From: Escherichia coli
Lineage (GTDB): Bacteria > Pseudomonadota > Gammaproteobacteria > Enterobacterales > Enterobacteriaceae
Assembly: GCF_041248615.1 (NCBI RefSeq)
Contig: NZ_CP158425.1
Reading direction: 5' to 3' (one strand)
Length of the DNA stretch: 64,000 nucleotides
Made by a program: the position numbers and the translations under genes. The first letter of the stretch is position 1. The number at the start of each line of letters is the position of its first letter. The notes below the pieces were generated by a model that saw nothing but the letters and a program-made list of their open reading frames with translations, made no database searches and was not told the origin of the DNA. Below, piece after piece: positions 9,162 through 63,524 of the stretch.

Positions 9162-10346
9162 TCATGACTGTCCCTTGTTCATCTTATCAGCATGCTTACG
9201 CAGGTACTCTTTCAGGTCAGCATGAGCGTTGATGATATCGTTCATTTCATCATTGGTCAGAACAAGCGTGTAAGTATCAGTACTGACAGATTCACCTTCT
9301 TTAAGCTTGGCTTCTTCAGCAATACGTTCAAAAATCGGGATCGCGGTGTCTGCAATGACGGTCACAGTCTTTTTGTTCAGAACGCTGGACATGGAAGGTG
9401 CTTTACCTGCCGGGTTCTGTTTAGGAGCGCTGTCCTTTGGAGCTGGAGCCGGTTCCTGTACCGGTGGCGTATCCAGCGTCTCCGTATTGCTTTCATCGTT
9501 CAGTTGATCCGGTACCGGGGTGTTATCGGTAGTATCATCTGCCGGTTGCTCAGCACCGATGTTTTCCGGAGTCTGCGGATCTGCCATGCGCTCTTCTACC
9601 TTGGCAGCTTTGACGAATTTCAGCGTGTTTTTCGTCGCCTTGCCATAGATGGAGATCGCTTTGTTGATGTTATCTACCGCATCCTCACCGCTGTACATAT
9701 ACTCGTCCAGTGCAACGTACATGCTCACCTGATCGCTCACAAGCATGGTCTGTAGTTCAGAAGGCAGGTCCAGTACGCGAACCATCTGGCGAAGATGCTG
9801 CTCTGATTTACCACGTTTTTTTGCCAGTTCCGCAAAGGTCTTAGGCTCTTCTTTATCTTCAACCAGACGCTTAATTGAAAGCGCTTCAGCTACGACAGAC
9901 AGCGCCAGGTTGGAGTTGCCGGTCAGGGTGAAGAGTTCTGCTTTTGAAGCGCTACCGCGAAACTCTTCGCAGCGAATACGAGTAATGCGTTCACGCCCTT
10001 CTGCTTCCAGCTGGCGGTTTGCAATAGCGATGGAACGGATACGGCAAGCCCCCTGACGCAGTACAGGTACGCCATTAACCATCTGAACAACGATAGGCGT
10101 CACGCTGAACGGGTCTTCCATGTAGGCATCGGCCAGGCTGTTCAGGTGTTCCACAACGTGAGGCATTGAATAGTAGAGCTCGCCCATACCGGCCGTGCGG
10201 GTGTTAAAGCCTTCCTGCTCTACAACAACCGAAGGGTCAATGATAAGGCCGTTGCCTTTACGGGCACCGTTACCAGTGCGTTCCAGGTAACCACGAAGGC
10301 TGATTTCGTTGCTGTTGTTTTTTACTTCAGTTTCGATTGCGGACAT
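9162..10346 (-). CDS. ParB N-terminal domain (ParB/KorB-like) protein, paralog 1
   Basis: EGFNTR and VLRQGACR motifs are spaced as in the ParB/sulfiredoxin-fold N-domain. The C-terminal linker is acidic and Pro-rich. Palindromic operator copies lie at 10435-10449 and 10561-10575 upstream. Confidence 0.6.
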   Translation of the reverse strand: MSAIETEVKNNSNEISLRGYLERTGNGARKGNGLIIDPSVVVEQEGFNTRTAGMGELYYSMPHVVEHLNSLADAYMEDPFSVTPIVVQMVNGVPVLRQGACRIRSIAIANRQLEAEGRERITRIRCEEFRGSASKAELFTLTGNSNLALSVVAEALSIKRLVEDKEEPKTFAELAKKRGKSEQHLRQMVRVLDLPSELQTMLVSDQVSMYVALDEYMYSGEDAVDNINKAISIYGKATKNTLKFVKAAKVEERMADPQTPENIGAEQPADDTTDNTPVPDQLNDESNTETLDTPPVQEPAPAPKDSAPKQNPAGKAPSMSSVLNKKTVTVIADTAIPIFERIAEEAKLKEGESVSTDTYTLVLTNDEMNDIINAHADLKEYLRKHADKMNKGQS

Positions 10347-10414
10347 TTTTGTTCTCTTTTTTGGTTGGTTGTTTAACTGCGCTACAACACAACAATACCA
10401 GGTTCGACATTTTT

Positions 10415-10426
10415 CCTAATAGGTTG
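10415..10426 (-). promoter_or_regulatory. Conserved promoter-like motif, variant (CAACCTATTAGG)
   Basis: About 70 nt upstream of the ParB-like paralog 1 start. Confidence 0.4.
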
Positions 10427-10434
10427 CGGAGAAG

Positions 10435-10449
10435 AAAAAGTAACTTTTT
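10435..10449. promoter_or_regulatory. Palindromic operator-like site, copy 2 (overlaps the -35 position of the ParB-like paralog 1 promoter)
   Basis: AAAAAGTAACTTTTT, adjacent to the promoter motif at 10415-10426. Confidence 0.5.
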
Positions 10450-10560
10450 TTAAAAATTTTCCTGAGGCAATACTACTCGATCCGTCCGTTTTAAATCTTC
10501 ACAACAGTGGGCCGTTTTTACGTTTAAGCAAAATAACTGGTTCAGAAGGTGACTCAGAGA

Positions 10561-10575
10561 GAAAAGTTACTTTTC
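10561..10575. promoter_or_regulatory. Palindromic operator-like site, copy 3
   Basis: GAAAAGTTACTTTTC, a perfect 7+1+7 palindrome. Confidence 0.55.
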
Positions 10576-12488: not shown

Positions 12489-13091
12489 ATGATGAATAAA
12501 GAACAACTAATCGACAAACTGGAACGCGTGGTATGTGGTCAGTACTCCTACGAAATGCAGGAGCTTGCGTATTCGGCCCTCTGCTGCATTAAAGGCACCC
12601 CGGACGACTGCGCTAAGTTCCCTGTTACGCGTCCGCTGCCTGACACCTTAGTGGACGTATGGGACGAAATCGGGCAATACCTTGGCACAGGCAAAGCCAT
12701 TGAAACTCGCAGTTGCGGCGTTTCGCTTCTGCTTCATGGACACTGCTACGATTCAAATCATGTGCTTTACTGGCGCAATGCTGGCGCACTTCCAGCAGCT
12801 TGCGATACGCCACTGGCTGGTGGGTCTCGCAAACTGTTCACCTGCTCAGCCTGTGGAGTGGACGGTCTGGATGAACCACCTGAAACCAGTTGCCACTGCT
12901 GCACAGAGGGGGCCCACTGGGTTGAGAGCAGGCTCTTCACCTCCGGGCAGGCAGACCCTGAAGAATTTAGACCCGTGGCGGTCGTGAAAGAGTGTGCAGG
13001 CTCAACGCCGGATGATCGGCTCATCTGGAGTGTGATTGAACAGCTCAACGGCGAACTGGCGGAAGGCGATAAACTATTTAAGCGACGCTGA
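12489..13091 (+). CDS. Hypothetical Cys-rich protein
   Basis: 200-aa ORF, co-directional; CSACG...CHCC cysteine cluster. Confidence 0.5.
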   Translation: MMNKEQLIDKLERVVCGQYSYEMQELAYSALCCIKGTPDDCAKFPVTRPLPDTLVDVWDEIGQYLGTGKAIETRSCGVSLLLHGHCYDSNHVLYWRNAGALPAACDTPLAGGSRKLFTCSACGVDGLDEPPETSCHCCTEGAHWVESRLFTSGQADPEEFRPVAVVKECAGSTPDDRLIWSVIEQLNGELAEGDKLFKRR

Positions 13092-13144
13092 CAGATCACG
13101 GCAGCATTTATAACAGACGAACTCCAGAATAATTTAAAGCAACC

Positions 13145-13501
13145 ATGAACATGAAAAAGCCCAAAGCTGCATTACAGAATGCCATGAAAGAAGATGTGCC
13201 AGCTGTGACACAGATTCAGATGCGATCTACGGTTTCCAGAAAGGTTCGCTATGTAAAACAGGCAAATCGAGAGGGTCTGAAATTATCTGAGTGGATGTCG
13301 CGGCATCTCGACGCTGTCTGTGATACCGCAGATGAGATTCATAAAGGCAAACGCTCAACTCCGGTTGCGCCTGGGAAGATTCCCCCAGAGGTATACCAGG
13401 TGATATACGATCAGTGCGGCGGGTTCGTGGAGTGTGATGCTAATGCCCAGGTTATCTGGGAAGCCTGCCGTAATGCCATTCTTAACGGAGACAAAGGGTA
13501 A
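13145..13501 (+). CDS. Probable ribbon-helix-helix DNA-binding protein (paralog of 38999-39256)
   Basis: VPAVTQIQMRSTVSRKVRYVKQANREGLKLSEWMSRHLDAVCD aligns with VPATAQLQMRVTPDRKLRYVNQAKAEGLGLTDWVQKHMDNVCD. The beta-strand/helix pattern is typical of RHH proteins. Confidence 0.5.
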   Translation: MNMKKPKAALQNAMKEDVPAVTQIQMRSTVSRKVRYVKQANREGLKLSEWMSRHLDAVCDTADEIHKGKRSTPVAPGKIPPEVYQVIYDQCGGFVECDANAQVIWEACRNAILNGDKG

Positions 13502-13546
13502 ACGGCAGGTATCGCCTGTCATTTTACCCTTGTGAGGACAATACTG

Positions 13547-13750
13547 ATGAACCATGAGAGCCGAACTGTATACCTGAACACGGCCATTGAGGCCCTGCTG
13601 AAAGCTGAGGCGGCTCTGAACGATCTGGCATTAGCCTATGAGCTTAAACCTGATGAAAAGGCAAGCGCATGCCATCCCAGAACCGGCACACTTTCCACTG
13701 CGTCCCAGGTAAAAAAACTCCGCCGTGTCCTTGAGAAGCAGAAGGTATGA
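13547..13750 (+). CDS. Small hypothetical protein
   Basis: GAGGAC lies 7 nt before the ATG at 13547; 67 aa. Confidence 0.4.
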   Translation: MNHESRTVYLNTAIEALLKAEAALNDLALAYELKPDEKASACHPRTGTLSTASQVKKLRRVLEKQKV

Positions 13751-14061
13751 AGGGCTGCATCAGCCAGGCCCGGATATAAATACATGCTCTGCCAGGTGAG
13801 TACCACTGCCCGGTAGCCGAATGATAAGTTTTGATTTCACGGTTGCAATTTCTCCCTCTGGCATCACTGCTCCACGATGCACCCCGATCAGCTTAGCGTC
13901 TGAAAATGAAGATGCACCGGACCTGCATGAAGCGGAACGGTGCCCAGCTGAGTGTTTGTGGGCACAATGAACCGCAATTTCATGATGGGAATGAAAGATG
14001 GCTGGTGGCCCGCTGATATGAACGCTTACCCTGCATAACGTTACTAACCACAATCTTTTCA

Positions 14062-14101
14062 CTAAAAGAAAAAAGGGTTCCTCCGCTTTAGAGGAACCCT
14101 T
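14062..14101 (-). terminator. Rho-independent terminator (leftward)
   Basis: Perfect 11-bp stem: AAGGGTTCCTC (14073-14083) pairs with GAGGAACCCTT (14091-14101). A T-run follows on the minus strand (A-run 14062-14072 on plus). Confidence 0.6.
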
Positions 14102-14138
14102 TCAAAAGGTGCCGATGGCATACTAATCCACACCCTGA

Positions 14139-14163
14139 AAAGAGGGGGGTTGCCCCCCTCTTT
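14139..14163 (-). other. 3'-terminal stem-loop of the hok mRNA
   Basis: AAAGAGGGGGG (14139-14149) pairs with CCCCCCTCTTT (14153-14163), directly after the hok stop codon. Confidence 0.5.
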
Positions 14164-14168
14164 GTCAG

Positions 14169-14327
14169 CTACTTACCGGATTCGTAGGCCAGGATAGCAA
14201 ATACCTCCCTTGTTCCGTCTTTCATCCGCAACTCGCAAAGCGAGTTTCGTGTGAGCCAGGTGAATATCAACAGCGTTAAACAAACTATTAATATGCACAA
14301 AACAATGGGTTGGTTCGGCATTTTCAT
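14169..14327 (-). CDS. hok: Hok/Gef family type I toxin (52 aa)
   Basis: [52 protein letters not shown] is near-collinear with R1 Hok (..[42 protein letters not shown]). Confidence 0.9.
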
Positions 14328-14340
14328 GGCCTTCTTCTCC

Positions 14341-14440
14341 TTGCATTTAAGCAGGCAAGAGGCTACGCTGTGTGTGACTAGCATACAGGGGCCTCGGGTT
14401 AATTGAAAAATTACTCGGGGCTTTCTGCTTTTACCACAGT
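14341..14440 (+). ncRNA. sok: Probable Sok-like antisense RNA region (boundaries approximate)
   Basis: Antisense to the hok leader. TTGCAT (14341-14346), a 17-nt spacer and TACGCT (14364-14369) form a promoter-like pair. Placement is by analogy with hok/sok loci; the 3' end was not resolved. Confidence 0.35.
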
Positions 14441-14488
14441 CAAACAGTGTTACCGCTGGCTGGGGCAAAAGCCTCCAGCACCAGCGTC

Positions 14489-14516
14489 ATTATATCACTC
14501 TGCCCTGATCAGCCAA
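14489..14516 (-). promoter_or_regulatory. hok mRNA promoter
   Basis: On the minus strand: TTGGCT (14511-14516), a 16-nt spacer and TATAAT (14489-14494), about 160 nt upstream of the hok ATG. Confidence 0.55.
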
Positions 14517-14681
14517 ACACCCTGCCTGCATAAATCATTGATTTATAATTTATTTGACATGAGTCACTTCCGGTTGTCGGAGACAGTCTTTTTACACTAA
14601 AGAAAAGGGTAACGGGCAGCTGCTTGGTCGGAACATACAGTGCAGTTCCTGCCCGTTTAATTTCCGGATGCAATGGTAGGA

Positions 14682-15287
14682 TCAGGAGGCACTGGTTCCG
14701 TTGATTAGGGAAAGCTTATGTGCCTGAATACGGCTGTATTCGAGATGGGATGGAATATTACAGATGCGCTCCAGTCGATCATGCAGCCTCGTGTAGGTCA
14801 GTCGATGAATACCGGACATTTCATCAAGTAGCCAGCGCTTGATGTAAGGGTTACAGGAAAGCCGGGCAAGATCGTCGTCATCCACTTCGTCAAAGAACCA
14901 GTACTGCTCCATCGGGACTACCTGAAATATCCACGGCCGGGGATAGTCCCCTGTGACAACCAAAAACCATGCGAGAAAGCATAGACACAGCTCAACGATC
15001 ATCAGCATCGAAAATTGCGAATAACTTAGACCAGGCACATAGGGTGAACTATCCGCAACATACCCCCTGAACAATTCCGCCACAAGGTAGCCCAATAGCG
15101 ACAAGGCCAGCATCAGGGTCAGGATTAATCCCCCATTAAACGCTACCGAAGCCTTTTGAACCCGATCAGGTGCTGTCCGGCTGCGATAGTTGGTCACTAC
15201 TCTTTCTACAAGTGCCCTTATGGCAGCCTGTTCTTTACTGACATCAGCTCCGGAAAAACCGGACGGGCTTTTATTTAATTCAGTCAT
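14682..15287 (-). CDS. Membrane protein, unknown function
   Basis: CAGGAG RBS. Two to three long hydrophobic segments (LILTLMLALSLLGYLVAELF, MLMIVELCLCFLAWFLVV). Confidence 0.55.
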   Translation of the reverse strand: MTELNKSPSGFSGADVSKEQAAIRALVERVVTNYRSRTAPDRVQKASVAFNGGLILTLMLALSLLGYLVAELFRGYVADSSPYVPGLSYSQFSMLMIVELCLCFLAWFLVVTGDYPRPWIFQVVPMEQYWFFDEVDDDDLARLSCNPYIKRWLLDEMSGIHRLTYTRLHDRLERICNIPSHLEYSRIQAHKLSLINGTSAS

Positions 15288-15502
15288 ACCCCACTCCTGT
15301 TATGTGCTCTACTGAACAAACACGTAGATCATACAGAGCTCACGGACGCACTCCTGCCAGATAAAGGAGGGAATTTGGCTGTAAGACGGTTAGCCAACAG
15401 TTCAGGTTATGCGTGGGATCCGGCCAGTCAGAAAGGATTCCGTTATTAACAGGCAAGGTTAAAGGCAGATGGACGTTGAAATTGTGGATGCTAAAAGGGG
15501 TA

Positions 15503-15784
15503 TTACTCTTTTTCCTGCATAGCGGCTTTTTCAGCCCGGGTGGCCAGGCGAGCATTTCCGAAAGGTTCACGGACAAGCAGGGGCTTCTCCTTCTTCCAGC
15601 CCCTGATAGCCGTTTCTCCAAAACGACGTGGTGCATTGCCGTTCCAGCGAGCAATCACATGATTATCATGAATTTCTATAATGACAACGGGGTGGACAAT
15701 GACCGTTGTAATGGTGGTATTTCCCATTTTGGTACGGGTTACAGACCAAACCTGCATCCCGGATTCCAGCTGGCTGATTTTCAT
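15503..15784 (-). CDS. Hypothetical protein
   Basis: AAGGA RBS. Preferred over the overlapping ORFs 15340-15654 and 15413-15826. Confidence 0.45.
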   Translation of the reverse strand: MKISQLESGMQVWSVTRTKMGNTTITTVIVHPVVIIEIHDNHVIARWNGNAPRRFGETAIRGWKKEKPLLVREPFGNARLATRAEKAAMQEKE

Positions 15785-16158
15785 ATTATATCCTTAAGCC
15801 AACACGAACTGCGCCACAAAAATTAATGTGGCGCAATTTACCATAAACAATAAACATCAGATACCCGTGAAGAGATTTCCCTTTATTTTAAAATTCTTCT
15901 GGAGAAAAAATGATATTTCCAGAAGAAGTCAGCGAAATTCAGAAACGGCCATCACAATGGTGCTGCGCTGACGCTGGCGTTCTGCCTTGCGCTGCCTGCG
16001 GCGATAGATCTATTTTGCGCTGACGTAAGGGCAGTCCTCACGGGTATACCAGCAGCAGCCGCAAGGTTCGGGCCGGGGTTTTCCGGCAAGTCCAAATGGT
16101 TTCATCAAGTCACCTTTTTAATATTTTTAATGGCAAGATACTTCCCTAACACATTGTT

Positions 16159-16470
16159 TTATCGCATATAACGCTGTTGCATAAACAGATACAGATAACC
16201 CTCAGGAGAAAACATGCAAAGGTTATCAGTGATAACCGCATCCAGATACCGAGTGTCAGTCTGTAAACGTTTTATCACCAGAAAATGTGCTGCCGCAGCC
16301 TTAATGCCAGAACTACCGTTTACAACATTATGTATACCCGCTTCGAATAACGAACGAGCATGAATTACCTTTTCCCGGGCCGCTTCGATCTCCGCATTAA
16401 TAACGCATTGCCGCGCCTGGATGACTGCCTCTCCGGTTAAATCGCGGAAATTCATTAGAGATGTGATCAT
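16159..16470 (-). CDS. Hypothetical protein
   Basis: TGGAGAG RBS. The conserved promoter motif lies at 16522-16534. Confidence 0.5.
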   Translation of the reverse strand: MITSLMNFRDLTGEAVIQARQCVINAEIEAAREKVIHARSLFEAGIHNVVNGSSGIKAAAAHFLVIKRLQTDTRYLDAVITDNLCMFSPEGYLYLFMQQRYMR

Positions 16471-16521
16471 GATTAACTCTCCAGATTATGTGGAATCATT
16501 ATAACAACTGGCATCCCGCCA

Positions 16522-16534
16522 CAAATAACCTGAG
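16522..16534 (-). promoter_or_regulatory. Conserved promoter-like motif (CTCAGGTTATTTG)
   Basis: About 52 nt upstream of the ATG at 16470. TTCAAA lies 15 nt further upstream. Confidence 0.4.
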
Positions 16535-16692
16535 AAAAATTCTTTGAAATATTCCTATATATAAGGAATTACAGTCGGAAAAGAAACGATGAAATAGCGC
16601 CGACCGCTTAAAATCGATAAATTAAAATGGACGGCACTGGAATGAAAAACTGAAAGTAGTAAGACCGTAATTATCCTTCACGGATGTAAGCT

Positions 16693-16893
16693 TTATAAGA
16701 GGAGTACTGGCAAAGCTTTGCCAAGTACTTCGGCGGTTGTGTCTACGATTTTACGGATGTCATCGATCTGCGAAGGCTTATTCAACACCACCGTAAAAAG
16801 CTCTCCTTCGTTATCAGCCTGCTCGCAGTTTCCGTATCGGCTCCCGTCGTACAGCTGCACAATACGTGACATAGAAGACTTTGTTTGTTTCAT
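16693..16893 (-). CDS. Small hypothetical protein
   Basis: AGGTG RBS; 66 aa. Confidence 0.45.
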   Translation of the reverse strand: MKQTKSSMSRIVQLYDGSRYGNCEQADNEGELFTVVLNKPSQIDDIRKIVDTTAEVLGKALPVLLL

Positions 16894-16932
16894 GGCTTTG
16901 CACCTGCTTTTAGGCAGTTTGGTTACTGGTTA

Positions 16933-17157
16933 TCAGAAGCTGGTTTCATGCGCTTCCGGCTGGGACACGAACTGGTATTTGACGCCGCCAGGCACACCTA
17001 CTGCTTCGGCAATAGAGTCGCAAAGCCGCGATAAATCATTTAGTGTCATCGGATATTCAATATCTACAGAATATAAAGCACCTGCATTTTCAGCATCTTC
17101 GATGTTTTTATACTGGGCACTAAATATAGCAATGGTCTGAATTTCGTGGTTATGCAT
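16933..17157 (-). CDS. Small protein, paralog of 23435-23674
   Basis: LYSVDIEYPMTLNDLSRLCDSIAEAVGVPGGVKYQF aligns with LFTLDIEHPMTLNDLSLLCESVADAVGAPGGIKYEI. AAGGA RBS. Confidence 0.6.
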   Translation of the reverse strand: MHNHEIQTIAIFSAQYKNIEDAENAGALYSVDIEYPMTLNDLSRLCDSIAEAVGVPGGVKYQFVSQPEAHETSF

Positions 17158-17170
17158 GAACCGGTCCTTA

Positions 17171-17199
17171 TTAAATTATAAAAGCCACCCGAGAGTGGC
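17171..17199 (-). terminator. Possible rho-independent terminator (leftward)
   Basis: GCCAC pairs with GTGGC (17184-17188 and 17195-17199), followed by TTTTATAATTT on the minus strand. The stem is short. Confidence 0.4.
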
Positions 17200-17211
17200 C
17201 TGAGTTGAAAC

Positions 17212-17415
17212 TTAAATCTGTGAAGTATTTTTGAGAGATTTTTTGCGATCCAGATGCCGGGCAACAATGGTTCCGATAACAAGTAGCATGATGACCGCAC
17301 TGAAGAAGGTGCTGTCAGGGACGCCCTGGAAAAAATCACTGAAACTGTAAACAATAAAAATCAATGCGCAAAAATAGAAAACGATACGAACATAAGGGGT
17401 AAAAAACATTTTCAT
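17212..17415 (-). CDS. Small membrane protein
   Basis: GGAAGG RBS; two hydrophobic helices in 67 aa. Confidence 0.5.
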   Translation of the reverse strand: MKMFFTPYVRIVFYFCALIFIVYSFSDFFQGVPDSTFFSAVIMLLVIGTIVARHLDRKKSLKNTSQI

Positions 17416-17553
17416 CGGTTGCCTTCCATTCAGGGAGAATTCTCAGTAATTACATCACACCTGAAGAGAAACTATTTTCGTATAAATGAGCATTTTCGAC
17501 ATATCAGAGGGGGGGTTTACTCATAAATGAGGTAGTAAGGGTCACACTTGAGG

Positions 17554-17568
17554 TGAAAGTTACTTTCC
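17554..17568. promoter_or_regulatory. Palindromic operator-like site, copy 4
   Basis: TGAAAGTTACTTTCC. Confidence 0.5.
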
Positions 17569-17594
17569 TGGCTGCGAACGAACTATCTCAAATG

Positions 17595-17888
17595 TTAGAG
17601 GTGTGCGTTCGCCTTGAGAGCCTCATGCCCTGAGGAGCTCAACTTGAGCCGATAGTATAAACCTGGCTCCAGATGGCTTGCTGGCTGGCATAACTCCACG
17701 AGGCCGAGCCGGAACAGGACCGGAGAGCTCCTGCACGTCACATCATCAGGATTCCCCATAAACGTACGCCGTTCTCTGGCCCGTCTGAAATTGCCAGAGA
17801 TATCATAGACCGTGCCGGATGCCATCCGTCGTAACACGTAAATCTGTGCCATTGTAAGCTTCTGGGCGGAACTGCTTAAACCTGACAT
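17595..17888 (-). CDS. Hypothetical protein
   Basis: GGAGG RBS; 97 aa. Confidence 0.5.
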   Translation of the reverse strand: MSGLSSSAQKLTMAQIYVLRRMASGTVYDISGNFRRARERRTFMGNPDDVTCRSSPVLFRLGLVELCQPASHLEPGLYYRLKLSSSGHEALKANAHL

Positions 17889-22848: not shown

Positions 22849-22875
22849 AGGAGCTGGCTTAAGTAACCGCTGAAG

Positions 22876-54668: not shown

Positions 54669-54845
54669 TTAATAGAATTCTTCATAACCGGGGTTTTCAG
54701 TTGAGTTTGCGGACTCTTTACTTTGCGGTTTCTCACCCTCTAGTTGAGTATCCCTGACAGGCTTGGATTTACCCATGCTCCTCTGAAAGGTATCCATAAC
54801 AAACTCAATATCTTCTTCTGGCAGGCTGGTGGGTTGGTTGCTCAT
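54669..54845 (-). CDS. Small hypothetical protein (58 aa, below the track cutoff)
   Basis: ATGA overlap with the stop of the methyltransferase gene (54842-54845). Reads MSNQPTSLPEEDIEFVMDTF...NPGYEEFY*. Confidence 0.35.
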   Translation of the reverse strand: MSNQPTSLPEEDIEFVMDTFQRSMGKSKPVRDTQLEGEKPQSKESANSTENPGYEEFY

Positions 54846-55967
54846 AGGACTTCCTCTTGTTGAATACGTTCGGCGTACAGGATGCGAACCGAAACGGTCG
54901 TGTTTTCAAACTCGTTCTCAAAAACGTCCATCCATTCCGTCCGGAATTCTTCCCCCAAAAGGTTATCGAGCCCCTGAAGAGATAATGGAAGAACGGCTGC
55001 TAGAGATCCCCCGGCTGCGAGATGAGATGCAGCTGCCTGGAGATGCCGCCTGGCCCGGTTATCGGCAAAAGGTGGGTTCATCACGACATAATCAAACTTC
55101 TTCTGTTGATTAGACTTAGACCATGTGAGGAAGTCAGCTTCTGTCGTATCGTATCCCTTAGCCCGGGAGATAAGGCAATTCAAAGTATCAAGCTCGATGC
55201 CAGTAACGATCACACCGGCAGGGAATGATTTAAGCAAATCCGCATGGCCAATATTAGGCTCCAGGAGGGTATCCCCTTCCCCTGCACCAAGCAGGGAAGA
55301 TACATATTCGCTGATTCGGCAAGATGAAGGGTAAAACTGATGCGATACAATATCAGGCATCTCCCCTATCTGGCCGATGTAACGAATAACCTCACACGGA
55401 TCATAGGAAAATGTCACATCGTATTTTGTTACTGTTGCCCCTAAGAACCGAAGGGTGTCAGCGGCAACACTCGAAGATTTGCGTTCGGCGAGAGACCCTA
55501 AAGATGTCCAGCAACTCCATTTATTGTCCCCGTCATTTTTAAACATCAGTTCAGAAAGCTGCATCCGGGTATCAAAGTCGATGCACTGCTTAAGTACAGG
55601 GAATGCCTCCAAAGATTTCTTGCTATGAGCCATACGGTCGGCAGGTAATGCCAGCGGTACGATAGCTGATAAAATATTGTTAAGCCGCTCGGCGATATCA
55701 GGGTGGACGTCAATATGCATTGATCCATTTTTGTAAACCCTGAAACGAATACTGTTGCCATCGATGCAGATCCATTTTCTGAACCCCTCATGTTCGACCA
55801 ACGCCTCAACCAATGATTTGGTGTTATGGATCGCCTTCACCTGTTCGCCACGGAAGAATGCGCATATAACGCGGAGCTCGCTCAGCGGTGAAATGCCAGA
55901 CTCTTTAAAATCCTGAACCGCCCCGGGAATCCTGGAGACTAAACTTCCTGAGAAAGAGGTAAACAGG

Positions 55968-56294
55968 ATGACTAAAAATACTCGTTTTTCCCCCGAAGTC
56001 CGTCAACGGGCAGTCCGTATGGTTCTGGAAAGTCAGGATGAATATGACTCACAGTGGGCGGCAATTTGTTCCATTGCCCCAAAGATTGGCTGTACGCCGG
56101 AGACTCTGCGTGTCTGGGTTCGCCAGCATGAGCGGGATACCGGGGGCGGTGATGGTGGGCTCACCAGCGCTGAACGTCAGCGTCTGAAAGAGCTGGAACG
56201 TGAAAATCGTGAACTGCGCCGCAGTAACGATATCCTTCGCCAGGCTTCCGCTTATTTTGCGAAGGCGGAGTTCGACCGCCTCTGGAAAAAATGA
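55968..56294 (+). CDS. IS3-family transposase OrfA
   Basis: 108 aa; differs from copy 1 at a few residues ([18 protein letters not shown]). Confidence 0.9.
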
Positions 56295-57181
56295 TGCCAC
56301 TGCTGGATAAGCTGCGTGAGCAGTACGGGGTCGGACCGGTATGCAGCGAACTGCATATTGCCCCGTCAACGTATTACCATTGTCAGCAACAGCGACATCA
56401 TCCGGATAAACGCAGTGCCCGTGCGCAGCACGATGACTGGCTGAAGAGAGAGATACAGCGCGTATACGATGAAAATCATCAGGTGTACGGTGTGCGTAAA
56501 GTCTGGCGTCAGTTGTTACGGGAAGGAATCAGGGTGGCCAGATGTACAGTGGCGCGCCTCATGGCGGTTATGGGACTTGCCGGTGTTCTCCGGGGTAAAA
56601 AGGTCCGTACGACCATCAGCCGGAAAGCCGTTGCCGCAGGCGACCGCGTAAACCGTCAGTTCGTGGCAGAACGACCTGACCAGCTGTGGGTGGCTGATTT
56701 TACTTACGTCAGCACATGGCGGGGCTTCGTCTATGTGGCGTTCATCATTGATGTGTTTGCCGGATACATCGTGGGGTGGCGGGTCTCATCGTCCATGGAA
56801 ACGACATTCGTGCTGGATGCACTGGAGCAGGCGTTATGGGCCCGTCGACCGTCCGGCACGGTCCATCACAGTGATAAAGGTTCTCAGTATGTATCGCTGG
56901 CCTACACACAGCGGCTTAAGGAAGCCGGATTACTGGCATCAACAGGAAGTACAGGCGACTCGTATGACAACGCGATGGCGGAGAGCATCAATGGTCTTTA
57001 CAAAGCGGAGGTAATACACCGTAAGAGCTGGAAAAACCGTGCAGAAGTGGAACTGGCCACACTCACGTGGGTGGACTGGTATAACAATCGACGATTGCTG
57101 GAAAGGCTGGGCCATACTCCTCCGGCAGAAGCAGAAAAAGCTTATTATGCTTCCATCGGAAACGATGATCTGGCAGCCTGA
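56291..57181 (+). CDS. IS3-family transposase OrfB
   Basis: 296 aa, near-identical to copy 1 OrfB. Confidence 0.9.
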
Positions 57182-57900
57182 GTTCACAGATAAAACACTC
57201 TCCAGGAAACCCGGGGCGGTTCAATCCACCCTTAATTTCTGCCAGGGGTATTTAGACGGCTCGCAAACTCCGGTAGTGATCATGCGGGTGGAGAACCCAA
57301 AAGCTTTGTTTGTCTTGTGACTGCGGCTCAGAGACTGGAAGACGTCGTAAACCCTTTCTTTAATAAATTGATTGCGGTCATTAAGCAAAGCAACGACTGT
57401 GCCCACTACAGCGTCAGCTGTGAAATCAGGGATCACCTGAGGCGGCATAATATAACGGTCGGCCGTAAACTGCTTATCCCATTCGTTACGTTTGGCATCC
57501 GACATGATAGGCAAAACATCAGTGAGTGCCATAACGCGTTTCCAGTATTCTGATCTCAGAGCGTTTTCTGCGAACAAGGCATCCGCTTCTGAGATGCTGT
57601 GGTTGTAGCCTGAGAGATAAGAATAAAGTTTCTGGTGATTGTGGGTTTTGAACTGGACAGCCATGAGTTTCAACAAGCAGAGTTCATCATTATAGGACTC
57701 AACAAGATCCGCGATAATGCCGAGCTCTTTGCGCATATCTGGAAGAAATGTTTCAGGAGAGCTAACCACCAGGCTATGAGAGGTTGTTAAAGCCAGTACG
57801 CTGTGACCTGCATTATCGGGTTTAGCTTCAGAATCAAGAGATGACATTTTACCGGTCCTTTAGAAAAAACTTTTACCAGGATAGCAACGTCGCTCAGTAA

Positions 57901-58094: not shown

Positions 58095-59258
58095 TTATTC
58101 TGCGTCCGGCTGTGGGTCAGTATCCTGATCGGTCTCTTCCCCTGCCTTCTTAGCATTTTTTTTACGTGGGTATTTTGGCTTCTCACCATTAAGTTTTGCC
58201 TGACGATTCTCCGCACGGCGAAGCTGCTTGTTCTCTGATTCTGTGATCTCTTTTGAAAGATTTCTCAACATCTCCAGAGTACTGCGGTTCAACGTAATGT
58301 TGATTTCTTCGTCAGCACTTGAATCTGTCAGCTCCGGCAATTCAATATCCCCCAGTTTCTGTAATAAGCTGGTGGTGATGAGTTTGACGCCTTCTACGGC
58401 TTTTGTGGCAATAACCGGCGGAATCCGTGCTGGCTTGAAGTCTGAAGGTCTGACTCGTACCTGACCATGTTGGGTTTTTTTCACCGTGATGCCATTCGCA
58501 TCGGCCTGCTCAAGTTCTGCGATCATCTTCTTGATACGTGAAATTGCTTCTGTTTCGCCGAGCTCATCGATCAGTGAAAGCACGTTAACATACGAAATAG
58601 CGTCAGCATGAATCCATTTCTTGATAACAACAGAACAGGTTGTCAGGCGGATAAGAGAACTGATGGTCGTCGGGCTTTTATTTTCACGTTGAGCAATTCG
58701 TTCGAGTGACCAGCCAGCAAGAGAATGTAGGCGACGATAGGACTCGCCAAGCGCAACAGGAGAAAGCGCAAGACCACGGTTACCATCAATGGTCGCGAGC
58801 TCACAGCCAATTTCATCTTCTTTAATCTCAACGCAAAGGATTGTGATGTCATGATCTTCATCACATGCCATCATTGCGGCTTTTAAACGGCAGTGCCCCT
58901 GGCGAACAAAAGGTACCCCATCAATGACACGTACTCGGATAGGGTCTACATAGTCACCTCGAATGTAGGCATTCTTGATGTTGTAGATGTGTTCTTCAAC
59001 CTCAGGGAGCTTATAGTAATCGTCACCCATTCCCATTTCGCGGGAGTTGAAGCCTGGCGTGACCTGAATTACTGAAGGGTGGATAGCCCATGCTTTCTGG
59101 TCACTTACTTCAGTACAAAGTTCAGGGTTTGCATCACGGAACTGTTTAAGCCCAGTGACGTAACGGCCTGTGCCAGTAACTACTGAAAAGGCAACATGGG
59201 CCGTTTTAAAGACCTTGTCATTAGCTTGCTGTGTAGGTTCTGTCAGTAAAACACTCAT
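58095..59258 (-). CDS. ParB N-terminal domain (ParB/KorB-like) protein, paralog 2
   Basis: PGFNSREMGMGDDYY and FVRQGHCRLKAAMMA are collinear with paralog 1 (EGFNTRTAGMGELYY, VLRQGACRIRSIAIA). ACGGAG RBS. Confidence 0.6.
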   Translation of the reverse strand: MSVLLTEPTQQANDKVFKTAHVAFSVVTGTGRYVTGLKQFRDANPELCTEVSDQKAWAIHPSVIQVTPGFNSREMGMGDDYYKLPEVEEHIYNIKNAYIRGDYVDPIRVRVIDGVPFVRQGHCRLKAAMMACDEDHDITILCVEIKEDEIGCELATIDGNRGLALSPVALGESYRRLHSLAGWSLERIAQRENKSPTTISSLIRLTTCSVVIKKWIHADAISYVNVLSLIDELGETEAISRIKKMIAELEQADANGITVKKTQHGQVRVRPSDFKPARIPPVIATKAVEGVKLITTSLLQKLGDIELPELTDSSADEEINITLNRSTLEMLRNLSKEITESENKQLRRAENRQAKLNGEKPKYPRKKNAKKAGEETDQDTDPQPDAE

Positions 59259-59534
59259 AGGGGCTCCGTTACATTTTTCTGCTTACTTTCTGCGTAGCGG
59301 GGATACTACCGAAAAAAAAATTCATAATTTTTCGCAAAAAAGGTACTTTTTGAGCCTATTCTGATTTTTTACAAAAAAAGGTGGCTCCCCATTACTTGTG
59401 ATGGCATAAAAATCGCTTCATAAACAAATACATAAATCCAAAACATAAAGTTCAGGTATAAGTGAGGAAAAATCTTATAAATCCGAAATGCTGAAAGTCA
59501 AAACTGTGCGTCTTAAACAACTTTTTTTTGCTCC

Positions 59535-59627: not shown

Positions 59628-60440
59628 ATGCCGATAATCAAATGGGCTGGTGGAAAAACGAAACTGATGCCTTTCATCAGCCATCACTACCCACACGATC
59701 ATAGTTGCCGGTGGGTAGAACCCTTTATAGGCGGTGGTGCCGTTTTTCTGAACATGTTTGCACAAAATGCATTGCTTGCAGATAGCAATCCAGACTTGAT
59801 CAACCTATACAGGACTATTCAAAGACAGAAAACTAACTTTATAAATCAGGTCCAAAACTTGGCGGATAAAACCTTTGTCGAAAAGGACTACTATGAGATG
59901 AGGGACCGTTTCAACAAAACCTGTATTTCTGGTCAATCGCTTCAAAGAGCGGCTTTGTTTTACTCCCTGAATCGCCTGGGCTATAACGGTATGTGCCGCT
60001 ATAACTCAGAAAGAATCTATTCAGTGCCGTGGGGGAAACATACAGAACTGAAGCTTGACCTCAATAAAATAGACTACCTTTCATTTCGTCTTTCAGGTAT
60101 TGAACTGATCACCGCTGGTTTTGAGGAGACTCTGGCCGCAACCGGTGAAGGAGATCAGATTTACTGTGATCCGCCATATGACAAAACAAGCAAAACTAGT
60201 TTTGTCAGTTACGATGGTAAACCGTTCAGCCAAAGCGACCACGTGCTGTTAGCAAATATGCTCGTTGACGCTCACAGAAAAGGCGCTGCTGTTGCGATAT
60301 CAAATAGCCTGACATCATTCACTTTGGGCCTCTATGAAGAGCGTGGATTCGTCATACACAGACTCAGCGCTTACCGATCCGTAGGAAGTAAGCCGAATAC
60401 ACGGAAAACGGAAACAGAAATACTGGCCGTGCTGAAATAG
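59628..60440 (+). CDS. dam: Dam-family (D12 class) DNA adenine methyltransferase
   Basis: IKWAGGKTKL...VEPFIGGGAVFLN...YNGMCRYN...IYCDPPY is collinear with E. coli Dam (LKWAGGK...VEPFVGAGSVFLN...YNGLCRYN...VYCDPPY). The track ORF starts at TTG 59607; the ATG is at 59628. Confidence 0.85.
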   Translation: MPIIKWAGGKTKLMPFISHHYPHDHSCRWVEPFIGGGAVFLNMFAQNALLADSNPDLINLYRTIQRQKTNFINQVQNLADKTFVEKDYYEMRDRFNKTCISGQSLQRAALFYSLNRLGYNGMCRYNSERIYSVPWGKHTELKLDLNKIDYLSFRLSGIELITAGFEETLAATGEGDQIYCDPPYDKTSKTSFVSYDGKPFSQSDHVLLANMLVDAHRKGAAVAISNSLTSFTLGLYEERGFVIHRLSAYRSVGSKPNTRKTETEILAVLK

Positions 60441-60448
60441 AGTAAATT

Positions 60449-61306
60449 CTAATCAACTAGGCTAATCCATTCCTCAAAAGTTAATACCTCAGGGTAAGTT
60501 CGTTGAACATAAGGTATAAACTGAAGCTCTTCTATTCTCCGGTCGCCCCTCTTTCCTTCGCAAATAAATGAAATGAGTCCTTGCTGAGAAAGGCCAGTAA
60601 GGACGCTCATAAGTCTTATATTTAGACTTTTAAGCTGTAAGTCGTTATTAATGTCCTCCACTTTATGAGAGCTCTGGCCTGAACGTTTAAGATACTCGTA
60701 AACCATGAAATTCGAATTTCGTCGTTTTAACAATTTTTCGGTTATGCATTCCTGAATGAAGTCGCCAAGAGCATCTAAAAGCGGACTGAGAACTACCGGG
60801 AAAGTTAATGTGTAACTTTGAGAAGTTTTAGACAAAGTGAATGAGTTTAGAAAGCTAAAGTTTAGTCTCTTTTTTGAATATGGAACATAAGCGACAAGAG
60901 TAGTCGACATAACAGTAAGTAAAGCTTCAAGATGGTTCACTGTTATTAAAGTGGTTTTATCTGTATTTCTAAGATTATGGAAATCAATAAACGCTACTCT
61001 TGAACGGCTAAGCCAATCTTGTACTTTAATGTCGATAGAAAATTGCGAGATATGATTTGAACATTCATTTTGGGTGATAGGGCATGCAGACGAAAGATGG
61101 TTATGGATTATCATGCATAGCACAAAAAAAGGAAAACGGCAGGCTGTGGGGCATTGAAAACCGGTTAAAGAAAGCTTAGACGTTTCATATGCGCTTACCG
61201 GAAAAGTAACTTTTCTTAACGTTGGCTTTGACGATGTTCTTGCATTTTTACAAATGAAACCGAGACCCAGATCATTGTGCATTTTAAAGTCCATCTCCAT
61301 CATCAC
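60449..61306 (-). CDS. Hypothetical protein
   Basis: AAGGTG lies upstream of a cluster of ATGs at 61297-61306; 285 aa; AT-rich. Contains operator palindrome copy 61201-61215. Confidence 0.45.
   Translation of the reverse strand: MMMEMDFKMHNDLGLGFICKNARTSSKPTLRKVTFPVSAYETSKLSLTGFQCPTACRFPFFVLCMIIHNHLSSACPITQNECSNHISQFSIDIKVQDWLSRSRVAFIDFHNLRNTDKTTLITVNHLEALLTVMSTTLVAYVPYSKKRLNFSFLNSFTLSKTSQSYTLTFPVVLSPLLDALGDFIQECITEKLLKRRNSNFMVYEYLKRSGQSSHKVEDINNDLQLKSLNIRLMSVLTGLSQQGLISFICEGKRGDRRIEELQFIPYVQRTYPEVLTFEEWISLVD
61201..61215. promoter_or_regulatory. Palindromic operator-like site, copy 13 (inside ORF 60449-61306)
   Basis: GAAAAGTAACTTTTC, a perfect palindrome. Confidence 0.45.
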
Positions 61307-61537
61307 CTTTTAGCCTTAACTGTATGGTATTGGTATACAAAAAATTAAAATTATAATTAATAAGATTATCATTTTTTTACAATAGAAAAGGTTCTGATAG
61401 AGGGGAATTTAAATGTAAAAGATTTATACTCGCAGATCTTTATGAGGGATAAAACCCATTGCGTAAGCAACAATATTACGTGAGTGAGTCCTAACGACAG
61501 TTAAAGTCTTGGCTCTATATTTAAGCAGCAAAAACAT

Positions 61538-62254
61538 TTAACTGTCTTGGAGTTTATTTAACTTAAAAACTGTTATTGCAGCATAATTTTTCGAATCAAA
61601 TTCATAGAATTTTCTGACTTTTCCAGTCAAATGATAACGTTCACCCAATAAAATGTGATCCTGTTTATCGGCCGTTAAAGCGATCCCGTCATTTCTAACT
61701 TTACCAGTAAATGTAAAAAAATAACTCCCTTTACTTTTTGCGTACGCGGCCCTGACTTCAGTAAATGTTAGTTCAATGCTTATGACCTGGCCGATATTGT
61801 AGCTATGTTTTAAAATTTCTTGTTCATTTTCCGGAGTTTCAGACAACATCACATCAAAAGTTGTAAAGAAACAATCCAGCTGGCGTTCTGTCAAGAAACG
61901 GTTATTGTCTAATTGCGCCAATATACTATTAGAAAACTTAGTGTTAGCCTTTTTTGCTTTCTCAATAAGGACGTGGTTTCTGGATTTCCATGCTTCGAGT
62001 GTTGGGTTAACACGCAGTTCCGGAATGTTATCGAGAAAGGTAATTGGCTCTAGTGCCACTAATTTTTCAATAATGGGTCCAACTGTTTGTACCCCATGAC
62101 ACTTTTCACATAAATCAGCCCCTTTGTGGCCTGTGCCCGCACATTCGTTACATTCTCTTTCGATAGGTGCATAATAATTTCCATCTCCGTTAAGTGATAC
62201 ATTCACTGAGGCTGGTACCATATGACCATCAAGAGTAAAGAAAAGAGATTTCAT
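61538..62254 (-). CDS. Zinc-ribbon (CxxCxGxG) protein
   Basis: CNECAGTGHKGADLCEKCHG motif. Overlaps the upstream gene by 4 nt. Confidence 0.5.
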   Translation of the reverse strand: MKSLFFTLDGHMVPASVNVSLNGDGNYYAPIERECNECAGTGHKGADLCEKCHGVQTVGPIIEKLVALEPITFLDNIPELRVNPTLEAWKSRNHVLIEKAKKANTKFSNSILAQLDNNRFLTERQLDCFFTTFDVMLSETPENEQEILKHSYNIGQVISIELTFTEVRAAYAKSKGSYFFTFTGKVRNDGIALTADKQDHILLGERYHLTGKVRKFYEFDSKNYAAITVFKLNKLQDS

Positions 62255-62451
62255 TTTCGAAACACCTCCAAACGTGCCTCTACGATTGCTACAGCTTCTT
62301 TCACAGTTTTTTCATAGTGGTCATGCCCTTCAGGAAATTGATCAAAACGTTTACCGTGTTCTAACTCTTCCATGTTGCGTTTAAGGACTTCATGAGTTAG
62401 AAGCAAATCACTATAATTATCGATAAGAGTCAGCTTTATAGGTTTAATCAC
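62251..62451 (-). CDS. Small hypothetical protein
   Basis: GTG start with GAGGA 8 nt upstream; 66 aa. Confidence 0.45.
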   Translation of the reverse strand: MIKPIKLTLIDNYSDLLLTHEVLKRNMEELEHGKRFDQFPEGHDHYEKTVKEAVAIVEARLEVFRK

Positions 62452-62468
62452 TCAACTAATCCTCGTTT

Positions 62469-63524
62469 TTAATATTCCTTAAGGAGATCTCGAATTTCCA
62501 GAAGCTCTTCTAATTTTGGTTTAGAAACAATGATTGCTGTATTTTCGTCGTTAAGTAAAGACAATAAAATATTTAGCTTTTCATCATTCAAGATTATTTG
62601 AACACCATCATTGGAAAATATTACATTATTACTATTAACATTTTTGAACAAGTGTGCACTATCTCTACCAAATTTTAGTTCTGTTTGAGTATTCGTTATA
62701 GATTCCGTATGTGTACTTTCCACAAGCTCAAGAAATTCAGATTTTAGCCGTTCTGTTTTCTTATGCGAGAGGCGCTTAATACCCAAAGTCTTACGAGTGA
62801 CTGCCGAATTTTTCTTTTCTGGTCCGCCTTTATTTAAGGTGTCTGGTCCTGCTCCAGCTGCATTGTGTTCAGGTATGCCTACAATTTTGCTCGTTGTAGT
62901 CTCAATATTCTTAACGCCAGGTAAGAAACCTTCTATATGTTTTAAAACCATTTTGTGATCGTTGGAATATTTTAACATTATTTCAATGGCGAGCGTTTTT
63001 TTGATTAGATTTAGGCTAATCAAACGTTGAAGCTCTAATGGCATATCAAGGATTTTTAGCATATTACGAATTGCGGTAGTTGATCGTTGATATCGCATTG
63101 CTAGTTCTTCAACCGAATACCCGAGACTAACAGCATGAGCTAATGCATGAGCTTGCCCAACCGGATTTAGCCCATTGCTTCTGTTACCATCGAGGTTCTC
63201 AAGGTATTCTTCAATTTCGTTTTTATAATCGATTAGGATAACAGATAATTTTGGAATATTAGCACCTTCAGAAATTGCTAATTTTAAGCCATGAAAACGA
63301 GTATGACCTTGACGAACTAAATATTTACCTTTTCTTTTTACGACCTTGATCATATCAACCTGCCTTCCTTCCTTAAAGGCTTGTTTGATTGACACAATCA
63401 TCGACTTGACAGGTTCTTGTTCGTAACACAAATCTCCGATTACCGCCTCTCGGGGATTAAATCCCTTTTCAATTTCAACTAGATTAGTATCCACTTCAAT
63501 GACTGTATGTTTGCTGTTGTTCAT
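62469..63524 (-). CDS. ParB N-terminal domain (ParB/KorB-like) protein, paralog 3
   Basis: KGFNPREAVIGDLCY and LVRQGHTRFHGLKLA motifs. GGAGG RBS. AT-rich codon usage compared with paralogs 1 and 2. Confidence 0.6.
   Translation of the reverse strand: MNNSKHTVIEVDTNLVEIEKGFNPREAVIGDLCYEQEPVKSMIVSIKQAFKEGRQVDMIKVVKRKGKYLVRQGHTRFHGLKLAISEGANIPKLSVILIDYKNEIEEYLENLDGNRSNGLNPVGQAHALAHAVSLGYSVEELAMRYQRSTTAIRNMLKILDMPLELQRLISLNLIKKTLAIEIMLKYSNDHKMVLKHIEGFLPGVKNIETTTSKIVGIPEHNAAGAGPDTLNKGGPEKKNSAVTRKTLGIKRLSHKKTERLKSEFLELVESTHTESITNTQTELKFGRDSAHLFKNVNSNNVIFSNDGVQIILNDEKLNILLSLLNDENTAIIVSKPKLEELLEIRDLLKEY

Follow-up and report, generated by a model that had tools for sequence, protein, structure and literature searches.

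Orphan ParB-family proteins and a dispersed palindrome on the IncHI plasmid backbone

A 64,000-nucleotide stretch of Escherichia coli DNA (NCBI RefSeq assembly GCF_041248615.1, contig NZ_CP158425.1), hereafter called the window, encodes three divergent members of the ParB family. These are labeled here as the paralogs P1 (open reading frame, ORF, 9162-10346), P2 (ORF 58095-59258), and P3 (ORF 62469-63524). The three proteins are orphans with no ParA partner, and quite probably are non-partition, DNA-binding regulators of the ParB family rather than segregation proteins. The same DNA carries many copies of a 13-bp palindrome, AAAAGT-N-ACTTTT, that looks like the operator of a backbone-wide regulon, and the sequence evidence suggests that at least one of the paralogs probably reads it, much as KorB and VirB do. 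The best explanation as a whole is a set of orphan ParB-family regulators in which P1 is the likeliest reader of the palindrome, and the balance of the evidence tips modestly in favor of this explanation. It is built on the paralogy of the three proteins, their fold, the lack of a ParA partner, and a palindrome whose existence, placement, and conservation are established.

The sequence of the window is the same as that of positions 174074-238073 in the plasmid p14408_M1 (NZ_LT599829.1, 238,073 bp), on which all whole-plasmid counts were made and to which record coordinates refer unless another record is named. This E. coli plasmid is of the IncHI2/IncHI2A type (MOBH, MPF_F) and carries mcr-1. 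The window forms its final 64 kb, beginning where Tra1 ends (traD) and continuing through many backbone genes of unknown function, three genes for Ig-like proteins, and repHI2. It stops just short of a second rep gene, of the RepB family, that starts at plasmid position 1.

Three paralogs with a ParB fold

All three genes are located on the minus strand, and RefSeq labels each product alike as a "hypothetical protein." The predicted proteins have 394 (P1, WP_001272970.1), 387 (P2, WP_000114859.1), and 351 (P3, WP_001065779.1) amino acids, and judged by their sequences they are true paralogs. Pairwise BLASTP comparisons give E=6e-27 for P1 and P2 (32% over 224 aa), E=4e-22 for P2 and P3 (30% over 174 aa), and E=7e-10 for P1 and P3 (26% over 179 aa). 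The original prediction, which had been made from the sequence alone, reported these same ORFs as ParB-N-domain paralogs, and the blocks it quoted (GFN.R, Y, and RQG..R) are indeed invariant columns of the alignment. It had confined the similarity to the N-terminal domain (NTD). That domain is shared, but the common region is longer, spanning approximately 175-225 aa and taking in the helix-turn-helix (HTH) DNA-binding domain as well. The Pfam HTH_ParB model (PF17762) scores 26.6, 22.7, and 26.9 bits for P1, P2, and P3 against a gathering score of 22.6, and P2 thus falls barely above it. Because all three proteins have an intact HTH DNA-binding domain, a reading as ParB-like nucleases, a group that the original prediction had mentioned, finds no support.

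Structure prediction with AlphaFold2 (AF2) covers P1 and P3, and P2 is tied to the ParB fold by alignment along the shared region. The P1 model (mean predicted local distance difference test score, pLDDT, 84.9; residues 11-255 above 95) contains a ParB/Srx NTD and HTH_ParB, followed by a disordered linker of about 60 residues (256-318) and a C-terminal module of two helices. The P3 model (pLDDT 84.7, above 95 in the NTD) ends in a mixed alpha/beta module with a fold unlike that of P1. In Foldseek searches, the NTD of both models matches ParB, Noc, KorB, and sulfiredoxin with probability 1.00. The best match for P1 is KorB of RK2 (8qa9, TM-target 0.66), with ParB-CTPgS and Noc also found, and the best matches for P3 are Noc, KorB, and ParB. 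Over the two models, KorB 8qa9 is recovered with TM-target values of 0.61-0.66, alongside Myxococcus xanthus ParB-CTPgS, Noc, and ParB-parS complexes. Similarly, a sequence profile of P1-P3 compared with known structures finds ParB/Spo0J (4umk, 2.3e-10; 6sdk, 4e-9) and Noc, with KorB marginal at E=0.41. PHROG 1033, "ParB-like partition protein," also fits all three (1e-21 to 3e-28).

The C-terminal parts, which the original prediction called unrelated, show no BLASTP similarity. Comparison of the subfamily profiles with hhalign gives nothing for P1 with either of the others (E=0.16 for P1-P2 and E=0.04 for P1-P3) and one weak P2-P3 segment (E=2.5e-4). The segment is a basic peptide after the linker, (T/V)R.(S/T)SLG(I/V).R(L/I)..KK, at residues ~266-285 of P2 (window ~58400-58460) and ~240-262 of P3 (~62740-62810). 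It vaguely recalls the canonical LG[KR]GL ParA-binding peptide, but lies at a different position, and from its sequence it could be a partner-docking motif.

Among 105 relatives, the sole invariant internal residues are the arginine of box I (P1 R50) and the G..R of box II (G99 and R102). P1 R102 aligns to Bs R80 in an alignment to 6sdk. The equivalent box II arginines are needed for CTP binding (Bs R80, KorB R117, and HerB R94), and the KorB and HerB mutants lose this activity. The glutamate of the GERR motif is replaced in the three paralogs, which read GACR, GHCR, and GHTR, and the E-N of box III reads G-N in all of them. Published mutants (E130 in HerB and E135 in Caulobacter crescentus ParB) link these glutamates to Mg2+ coordination and CTP hydrolysis. 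Because the box I and box II residues are kept and both glutamates are replaced, nucleotide binding by P1-P3 is plausible on sequence grounds, whereas canonical hydrolysis is doubtful.

There is no annotated ParA in the window, none adjoins P1, P2, or P3, and no deviant (ParA-type) Walker A motif is present in any frame of the 64 kb, as the original prediction had maintained. The whole plasmid has one ParA, and its sole ParA-type KGGTGKS motif is in the annotated parA at record 16340. This gene belongs to a pair (record 15974-18228) that encodes a type-Ia ParA and a "P1-type" ParB (PF08775; the label does not refer to the paralog P1), and a ParM/ParR system is located at record 21334-23021. 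The plasmid's own ParA/ParB and ParM/ParR are thus 16-23 kb away and have their own repeat arrays. A tandem array of 12.6 copies of a 249-bp unit (record 12504-15594) fills the unannotated gap directly upstream of the canonical parA and, by its sequence and position, is likely the Par1 centromere. A related Klebsiella plasmid has 18 ACAAC-NNN-GTTGT palindromes, 16 of which lie on either side of parAB. Thus, rather than a cognate parA and parS beside each copy, the finding that the original prediction had named as its refutation, there is a single plasmid ParA that is paired with its own ParB and array.

Other comparisons likewise set P1-P3 apart from partition proteins. The canonical plasmid ParB and P1-P3 give no cross-match in tblastn, which also finds no fourth P1-P3-type copy on the plasmid. 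P1-P3 do not match PF08775, unlike the canonical ParB, and none has a match to the KorB Pfam domain at E<=0.1. The N-terminal ParA-binding motif [LFI]G[KR]G[LFI], defined in a 2025 survey of the fold (PMC12704722), is absent from P1-P3 and from 15 relatives. The TIGR00180 parB_part model scores them at 29.5, 32.5, and 33.9 bits, about half its cut-off of 58.45. In a separate check, PADLOC reports no defense-system match. One alternative retains a partition-like role, in which the paralogs are accessory centromere-binding proteins that use the plasmid ParA in trans or position DNA independently of ParA, with the palindromes as dispersed parS sites; this is highly improbable, because although the ParB fold, the palindromic sites, their clusters beside P1-type genes, and the first annotation of R27 R0042 as a "partition protein" can be cited for it, it is opposed by the missing ParA-binding motif and adjacent ParA, by the low TIGR00180 scores, by the two partition systems with dedicated repeat arrays already on the plasmid, and by the spread of sites over the whole backbone with enrichment before genes.

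A dispersed palindrome before backbone genes

AAAAGT-N-ACTTTT occurs as eight exact copies in the window, where 0.01 would be expected. The exact sites start at 10436, 10562, 28855, 33067, 38271, 52996, 53061, and 61202, and sites with one mismatch start at 485, 5387, 23806, 37236, 43988, 46212, and 59338. The whole plasmid has 24 exact and 22 one-mismatch copies, none of which is in the 48-kb resistance island. An unbiased census identified this sequence as the only strongly over-represented palindrome on the plasmid. The same census revealed no second operator family that might serve P2 or P3, the next candidate being tetO plus one isolated site.

The sites are enriched in intergenic DNA. 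In the window, 11 of 15 are intergenic compared with an expectation of 25.5% (P=1.4e-4), and all but one of these 11 sit 86-222 nt upstream of start codons, among them those of P1, P2, two Ig-like genes, and a number of small-gene operons. According to the annotation, 14-15 of the 24 exact plasmid sites are intergenic, several of them at the starts of tra operons.

Upstream of P1, two exact palindromes (AAAAGTNACTTTT; 10436-10448 and 10562-10574) are centered 96 and 222 nt from the start codon. P1 is the first large gene in a leftward run of small genes, and the nine small minus-strand ORFs downstream of it (4521-9096) form an apparent P1 operon. None of the nine has a Pfam match, and P1 has no methyltransferase neighbor. 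Upstream of P2, a one-mismatch palindrome (AAAAGGTACTTTT; 59338-59350) lies 80 nt from the start codon. The original prediction had placed a palindromic operator, or a degenerate form of it, some 80-90 nt upstream of both genes. Such sites do exist at both, with the P2 site at 59338-59350 rather than 59336-59349 and with two P1 sites at the distances given above. In IncHI1, the P2 ortholog has a degenerate palindrome of identical sequence at the same position.

The association between the palindrome and these genes extends to other replicons. Relatives of P1-P3 occur in approximately 2,400 plasmid records and in 47 phage genomes, and an exhaustive HMMER search gives 4,938 distant representatives at E<=1e-3. 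IncHI2 and IncHI1 plasmids have all three paralogs at conserved positions. In these plasmids, P2 and dam are divergent, a DUF4942 methyltransferase gene comes after P2, and P3 adjoins RepHI1A. IncHI1 has six exact palindromes in 50 kb. Klebsiella IncHI1B/IncFIB megaplasmids encode a P1-type and a P2-type protein (43% identity each) and no P3-type, and a Klebsiella plasmid has 12 exact and 13 one-mismatch palindromes in 40 kb, including one upstream of each Ig-like gene.

The paired palindromes upstream of P1-type genes are kept in other lineages. They are found at -110 and -212 in one metagenomic lineage (L011), at -258 and -290 in another (L013), and at -103, -221, and -338 in an IncHI1-type ortholog (L028), and they are also present at L030. 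In Klebsiella (L015), the P1-type gene has six exact sites within 870 bp upstream. Every sampled P1-type gene, down to approximately 34% identity, has two to six palindromes upstream. P2-type genes also have upstream sites, which in Klebsiella form a cluster of one-mismatch copies, and no conserved palindrome is found upstream of P3-type genes.

Several additional sites in the window precede other backbone genes. Exact palindromes are located 212 nt upstream of ORF 28323-28649 (28855-28867), 176 nt upstream of ORF 32520-32897 (33067-33079), and 141 nt upstream of the Ig-like gene 35746-38136 (38271-38283). Two more (52996-53008 and 53061-53073) are found where the Ig-like gene 50384-52840 and ORF 53213-53839 diverge, in the stretch that separates them. 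The three large Ig-like-domain genes of the window (35746-38136, 43689-46109, and 50384-52840) are paralogous and of the RSP type, which IncHI plasmids need in order to conjugate. Two of them have exact palindromes 141-162 nt upstream, and 43689-46109 has one-mismatch sites within it and just after it.

A one-mismatch palindrome at 23806 is directly downstream of a gene for a 794-aa PAPS-reductase-family protein (23924-26308) and 138 nt upstream of ORF 23435-23674. The nearest paralog is 13.5 kb from the PAPS-reductase-family gene, and proteins of this family are encoded on IncHI1 and IncC plasmids too. In IbrAB and DndBC-type systems, such proteins have a ParB-like protein as their partner. 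Also, the IncHI1 plasmid pSX8G-tetX4 has three copies of gcaGAAAAGTGCCTTTTg with an exact 43-bp spacing (L009 35307, 35350, and 35393) just downstream of the RepHI1A rep gene. This sequence is a variant of the palindrome in the form of a short array, and the equivalent region of IncHI2 has two single sites (record 986 and 1771).

Candidate readers and the roles of the paralogs

Given these features, P1-P3 would combine an NTP-binding (nucleoside triphosphate) ParB/Srx NTD with a ParB-type HTH, a flexible linker, and a subfamily-specific C-terminal module, and would act as DNA-loading regulators of the IncHI backbone rather than in segregation. At least one paralog, most likely of the P1 type, would recognize AAAAGT-N-ACTTTT before many backbone operons, including P1's own operon (two sites) and that of P2 (one degenerate site). 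The bound protein might then control transcription at a distance, either by KorB-like repression or by VirB-like relief of H-NS silencing. The case for P1 as the reader draws on the multiple sites before every sampled P1-type gene and on a conserved recognition helix. P1-type proteins keep S..H[LVI]R[QK][ML] in this helix, and the helix of P2-type proteins varies while the palindrome stays constant. For the specific claim that P1 reads the palindrome, these sequence patterns leave the chances slightly below even. P3 is an unlikely reader, because the Klebsiella plasmids have no P3 and yet are dense with sites. The canonical ParB was considered as well and rejected as an unlikely reader, as it has its own repeat arrays beside parAB.

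P2 would be the abundant paralog, co-regulated with conjugation and heading a methyltransferase operon. By synteny, it is the ortholog of R27 R0042, which has been labeled a "partition protein." In R27 microarray data, R0042 is among the most highly expressed genes (6132 arbitrary units at 25 C) and is induced under all conjugation-promoting conditions. By analogy, this level of expression might be what is expected of a global clamp. A fourth R27 ORF labeled "partition protein," R0153, is located beside a cytosine methylase gene and has an IncHI2 counterpart near record 103476-106473. R0153 is induced with R0042 under conjugation-promoting conditions (PMC7366339, Table S3). It falls outside the P1-P3 family, as judged by the lack of a tblastn match.

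The gene downstream of P2 encodes a DUF4942/N6-methyltransferase (54842-57847, minus strand), and an IS3-family element (55968-57181) breaks it into two annotated coding sequences (CDSs). It is intact (1677 bp) in IncHI1 and is known in R27 as R0043, a "DNA restriction methylase." A gene for a Dam-family (D12 class) adenine methyltransferase (59628-60440, plus strand) is transcribed away from P2 and toward the P3 module. Most of the P2 and P3 operon partners have no Pfam match.

P3, the ortholog of R27 R0037, would head a separate AT-rich module that comprises a small ORF, a Zn-finger protein, a protein of unknown function, and Dam, and that is not tied to the palindrome. The module (60449-62451, minus strand) consists of the small ORF 62251-62451, the gene for the Zn-finger-like protein (61538-62254), and the gene for a 284-aa protein (60449-61303). 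The original prediction had described P3 as lying in an AT-rich block, and indeed P3 and its operon have 35.7-36.3% G+C (35.7% for P3 itself) compared with 45.7% for the window. The gene order, in general terms a small ORF, a Zn-finger-like protein, and a protein of approximately 270 aa, is kept after P3-type genes in three unrelated replicons (L016-L018), where the module ends at a convergent Dam gene; the arrangement of dam in the window is the same as that in L016 and L017. R0037 is lowly expressed in R27 microarray data. An exact, extended palindrome (GAAAAGTAACTTTTC) at 61202-61214 falls within CDS 60449-61303 as annotated, some 100 nt from its 5' end. The true start of this CDS may be further downstream, which would place the palindrome in its promoter. 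The R27 counterpart of the CDS is R0040, which rises 18.6-fold in an htdA mutant.

The same prediction placed P3 downstream of phased repeats. These repeats do exist: GCATTT-type and GATC-containing TAAAGATCA units occupy 63753-63949, directly upstream of the RepB-family (IncHI2A) rep gene. P3-type genes are not adjacent to a rep gene in the L016-L018 replicons, and for this reason the repeats more likely belong to rep. Their sequence and position indicate that they probably are iterons or a rep control region, not a P3 site.

A number of observations weigh against this regulator model or against P1 as its reader. About one quarter of the exact plasmid sites are deep within genes, a scan for sigma-70 consensus sequences next to the sites gave no more than the shuffled expectation, and no promoter element occurs at a fixed offset from the palindromes. 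The palindrome is identical across IncHI2, IncHI1, Klebsiella IncHI1B, two metagenomic lineages, and GTDB genomes. Because it is invariant in every sampled lineage, a test for co-variation between recognition helix and site has no power. P2 could be the reader instead, given its upstream sites and its abundance. Furthermore, canonical CTPase cycling by P1-P3 is doubtful because the GERR and box III glutamates are replaced. The identity of the binding paralog, its dependence on NTP, and the sign of regulation are all points that we infer. Finally, it may be that a different protein reads the palindrome and that P1-type genes do no more than belong to its regulon, and sites are also present at the starts of tra operons, which are known to be controlled by TrhR, TrhY, and HtdA.

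This last point leads to the strongest competing explanation, in which TrhR/TrhY or HtdA reads the palindrome and the ParB-like proteins are mere regulon members with a role elsewhere, such as attachment to the host chromosome when the plasmid enters, in the manner of HerB/YfjB of F. The palindromes are found where tra operons and the operon of trhR itself start, or close by, and TrhR/TrhY are activators of the F, H, AC, and Z operons. In R27, mutation of htdA de-represses 139 of 181 expressed genes, including R0037, R0040, R0042, and R0045, and thus a plasmid-wide regulon exists, a fact that counts for the regulator model as well. HerB also provides a precedent for an orphan plasmid ParB-like clamp that acts on the host chromosome without a parS-like site. 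However, HtdA is reported to work on TrhR/TrhY at the protein level, and a perfect 13-bp palindrome suits a dimeric HTH protein on a plasmid that encodes three ParB-type HTH proteins. The densest clusters of sites are upstream of P1-type genes (six in Klebsiella), as autoregulation predicts. The IncHI2 counterparts of TrhR, TrhY, and HtdA have no recognizable DNA-binding domain, which neither supports nor excludes them, and no binding sites for the three were found in the accessible text of the literature. Overall, this explanation is rather unlikely, but it is the most serious of the rivals.

A bolder extension of the regulator model is a three-paralog network of ParB clamps. In such a network, P1 or P2 would load at approximately 24-46 sites and set the expression of most of the backbone, and the other paralogs, having the same fold and different C-terminal modules, would deliver or control DNA methyltransferases during establishment. 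If true, this network would explain at the level of DNA how the R27 regulon, which spans the plasmid and depends on temperature and HtdA, is controlled, a link that has been missing. The proposal is speculative and is considered unlikely.

More improbable again is the possibility that P2, P3, and the orphan ParB-like protein of IncC plasmids are DNA-loading cofactors that recruit neighboring methyltransferases to plasmid DNA or activate them there, serving self-protection or establishment after transfer, and are not transcription factors. Gene context offers some encouragement: P2 has the DUF4942/N6-methyltransferase gene after it and dam diverging from it, three unrelated replicons have a convergent Dam gene at the end of the P3 module, and the IncC orphan gene is followed by that of a site-specific methyltransferase. 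Fusions of the ParB fold to methyltransferases are common in phages, and one DNA-modifying dioxygenase needs a ParB-like phage protein before it can work on double-stranded DNA. On the plasmids, however, the ParB-like proteins and the methyltransferases are separate genes rather than fusions, and their interaction is conjecture. P1 does not have such a neighbor, and the cofactor role leaves the promoter-proximal palindromes unexplained.

The regulator model with P1 as likeliest reader addresses a matter of some importance, as much multidrug resistance is carried by plasmids of the IncHI1 and IncHI2 types and the present plasmid has mcr-1. Transfer of IncHI plasmids is thermoregulated by TrhR/TrhY/HtdA and H-NS/Hha, and no DNA-level targets were found reported. 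A conserved 13-bp site before tra operons, Ig-like genes, and ParB-like genes, together with three candidate readers, makes this gap directly testable. No paper was found that describes the palindrome as a plasmid site. The IncHI comparative papers and those on Ig-like proteins mention neither the palindrome nor P1-P3, and nothing was found in the literature on these IncHI proteins beyond the old "partition protein" label of R0042. Should one of the paralogs prove to read the palindrome, nature would have provided another ParB-type clamp for plasmid-wide control of transcription, operating without ParA, and the protein would be a possible target for interfering with plasmid gene expression. 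Even if no paralog reads the palindrome, the proteins would still constitute a widespread, unstudied subfamily of orphan ParB proteins.

Comparison with known ParB-like systems

The original prediction likened the paralogs to KorB of the IncP-1 plasmid RK2, and this analogy holds in part. The OB operator of KorB is a 13-bp palindrome. KorB has the ParB-family fold and is the best structural match of P1, and the models suggest the same layout in both proteins, consisting of an NTD, an HTH domain, a flexible linker of about 50-60 aa, and a C-terminal domain. The dispersed, promoter-proximal 13-bp palindrome of IncHI2 is alike in form to OB, and P1 is its candidate reader. KorB loads at OB operators and then slides as a clamp that depends on CTP, so that promoters as far as 1.5 kb from the operator are repressed, and a title in the reference list of the KorB paper gives RK2 12 KorB binding sites. 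The analogy fails where partners are concerned. KorB is paired with the ParA protein IncC, has a peptide at its N terminus that interacts with ParA, and acts together with KorA, whereas P1-P3 have neither a ParA partner nor the motif, no KorB Pfam match, and only marginal sequence similarity.

IncC plasmids provide an example of a true relative in a different setting. Their orphan protein (WP_000268394.1) is approximately 36% identical to the core of P2 and 32% identical to P1, and its gene likewise stands apart from a real ParA/ParB pair, precedes a DNA methyltransferase gene, and is carried by a MOBH/MPF_F plasmid. Unlike the IncHI set, it is a single copy inside a long operon, with a true ParA and a KorB-domain ParB encoded 3 kb downstream. 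There is no AAAAGT-N-ACTTTT site on IncC (CP082551.1), which instead has another dispersed palindrome, CTTTCACATGTGAAAG. Copies of the form CTTTCACA|TGTGAAAG occur at 4212, 7627, 25046, 51557, 52636, 56220, 56679, 62005, and 65353 of that record, and from their sequence and spread they look like the sites of a KorB-type regulon. As separate observations, their half-site is that of canonical parS, and copies are located 64 nt upstream of parA and 31 nt upstream of the long operon that holds the orphan gene.

VirB of the Shigella virulence plasmid is derived from the P1 ParB/SopB lineage (again not the paralog P1). Like the paralogs, it is an orphan ParB-like protein, and the large enterobacterial plasmid that encodes it is silenced by H-NS. 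VirB is loaded at inverted repeats that precede promoters and exerts its effect from afar, and although it binds CTP it hydrolyzes little of it. The IncHI backbone is similarly under H-NS/Hha control, and P1-P3 have lost the catalytic glutamates. There are differences, in that P1-P3 are outside PF08775, that there are three paralogs rather than one, and that the sites are far more numerous (24 exact). By this analogy, activation by P1-P3 is conjecture. BisD of the Pseudomonas element ICEclc is described in the accessible text as a ParB-like, CTP-dependent clamp that controls transfer-competence genes over long distances. It too belongs to a conjugative element, and P2 likewise is co-regulated with conjugation. 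The element type and lineage are different, however, and the likeness is one of description, drawn without a comparison of sequences.

HerB/YfjB from the leading region of F is another orphan plasmid ParB-like protein. It has a CTP-binding domain, an HTH, and a novel C-terminal dimerization module, and has no segregation role. It is much larger than the paralogs (residues numbered to at least 625), needs no defined palindrome for its binding to the host chromosome, and keeps the box III glutamate (E130) intact. In contrast, P1-P3 have 351-394 aa, do not have this glutamate, and reside on a plasmid with a clear candidate site. Because P1-P3 have no ParA partner, no ParA peptide, and no KorB domain, VirB, BisD, and HerB are closer analogs than KorB. 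Orphan ParB proteins are an established category, to which the IncHI set adds three members.

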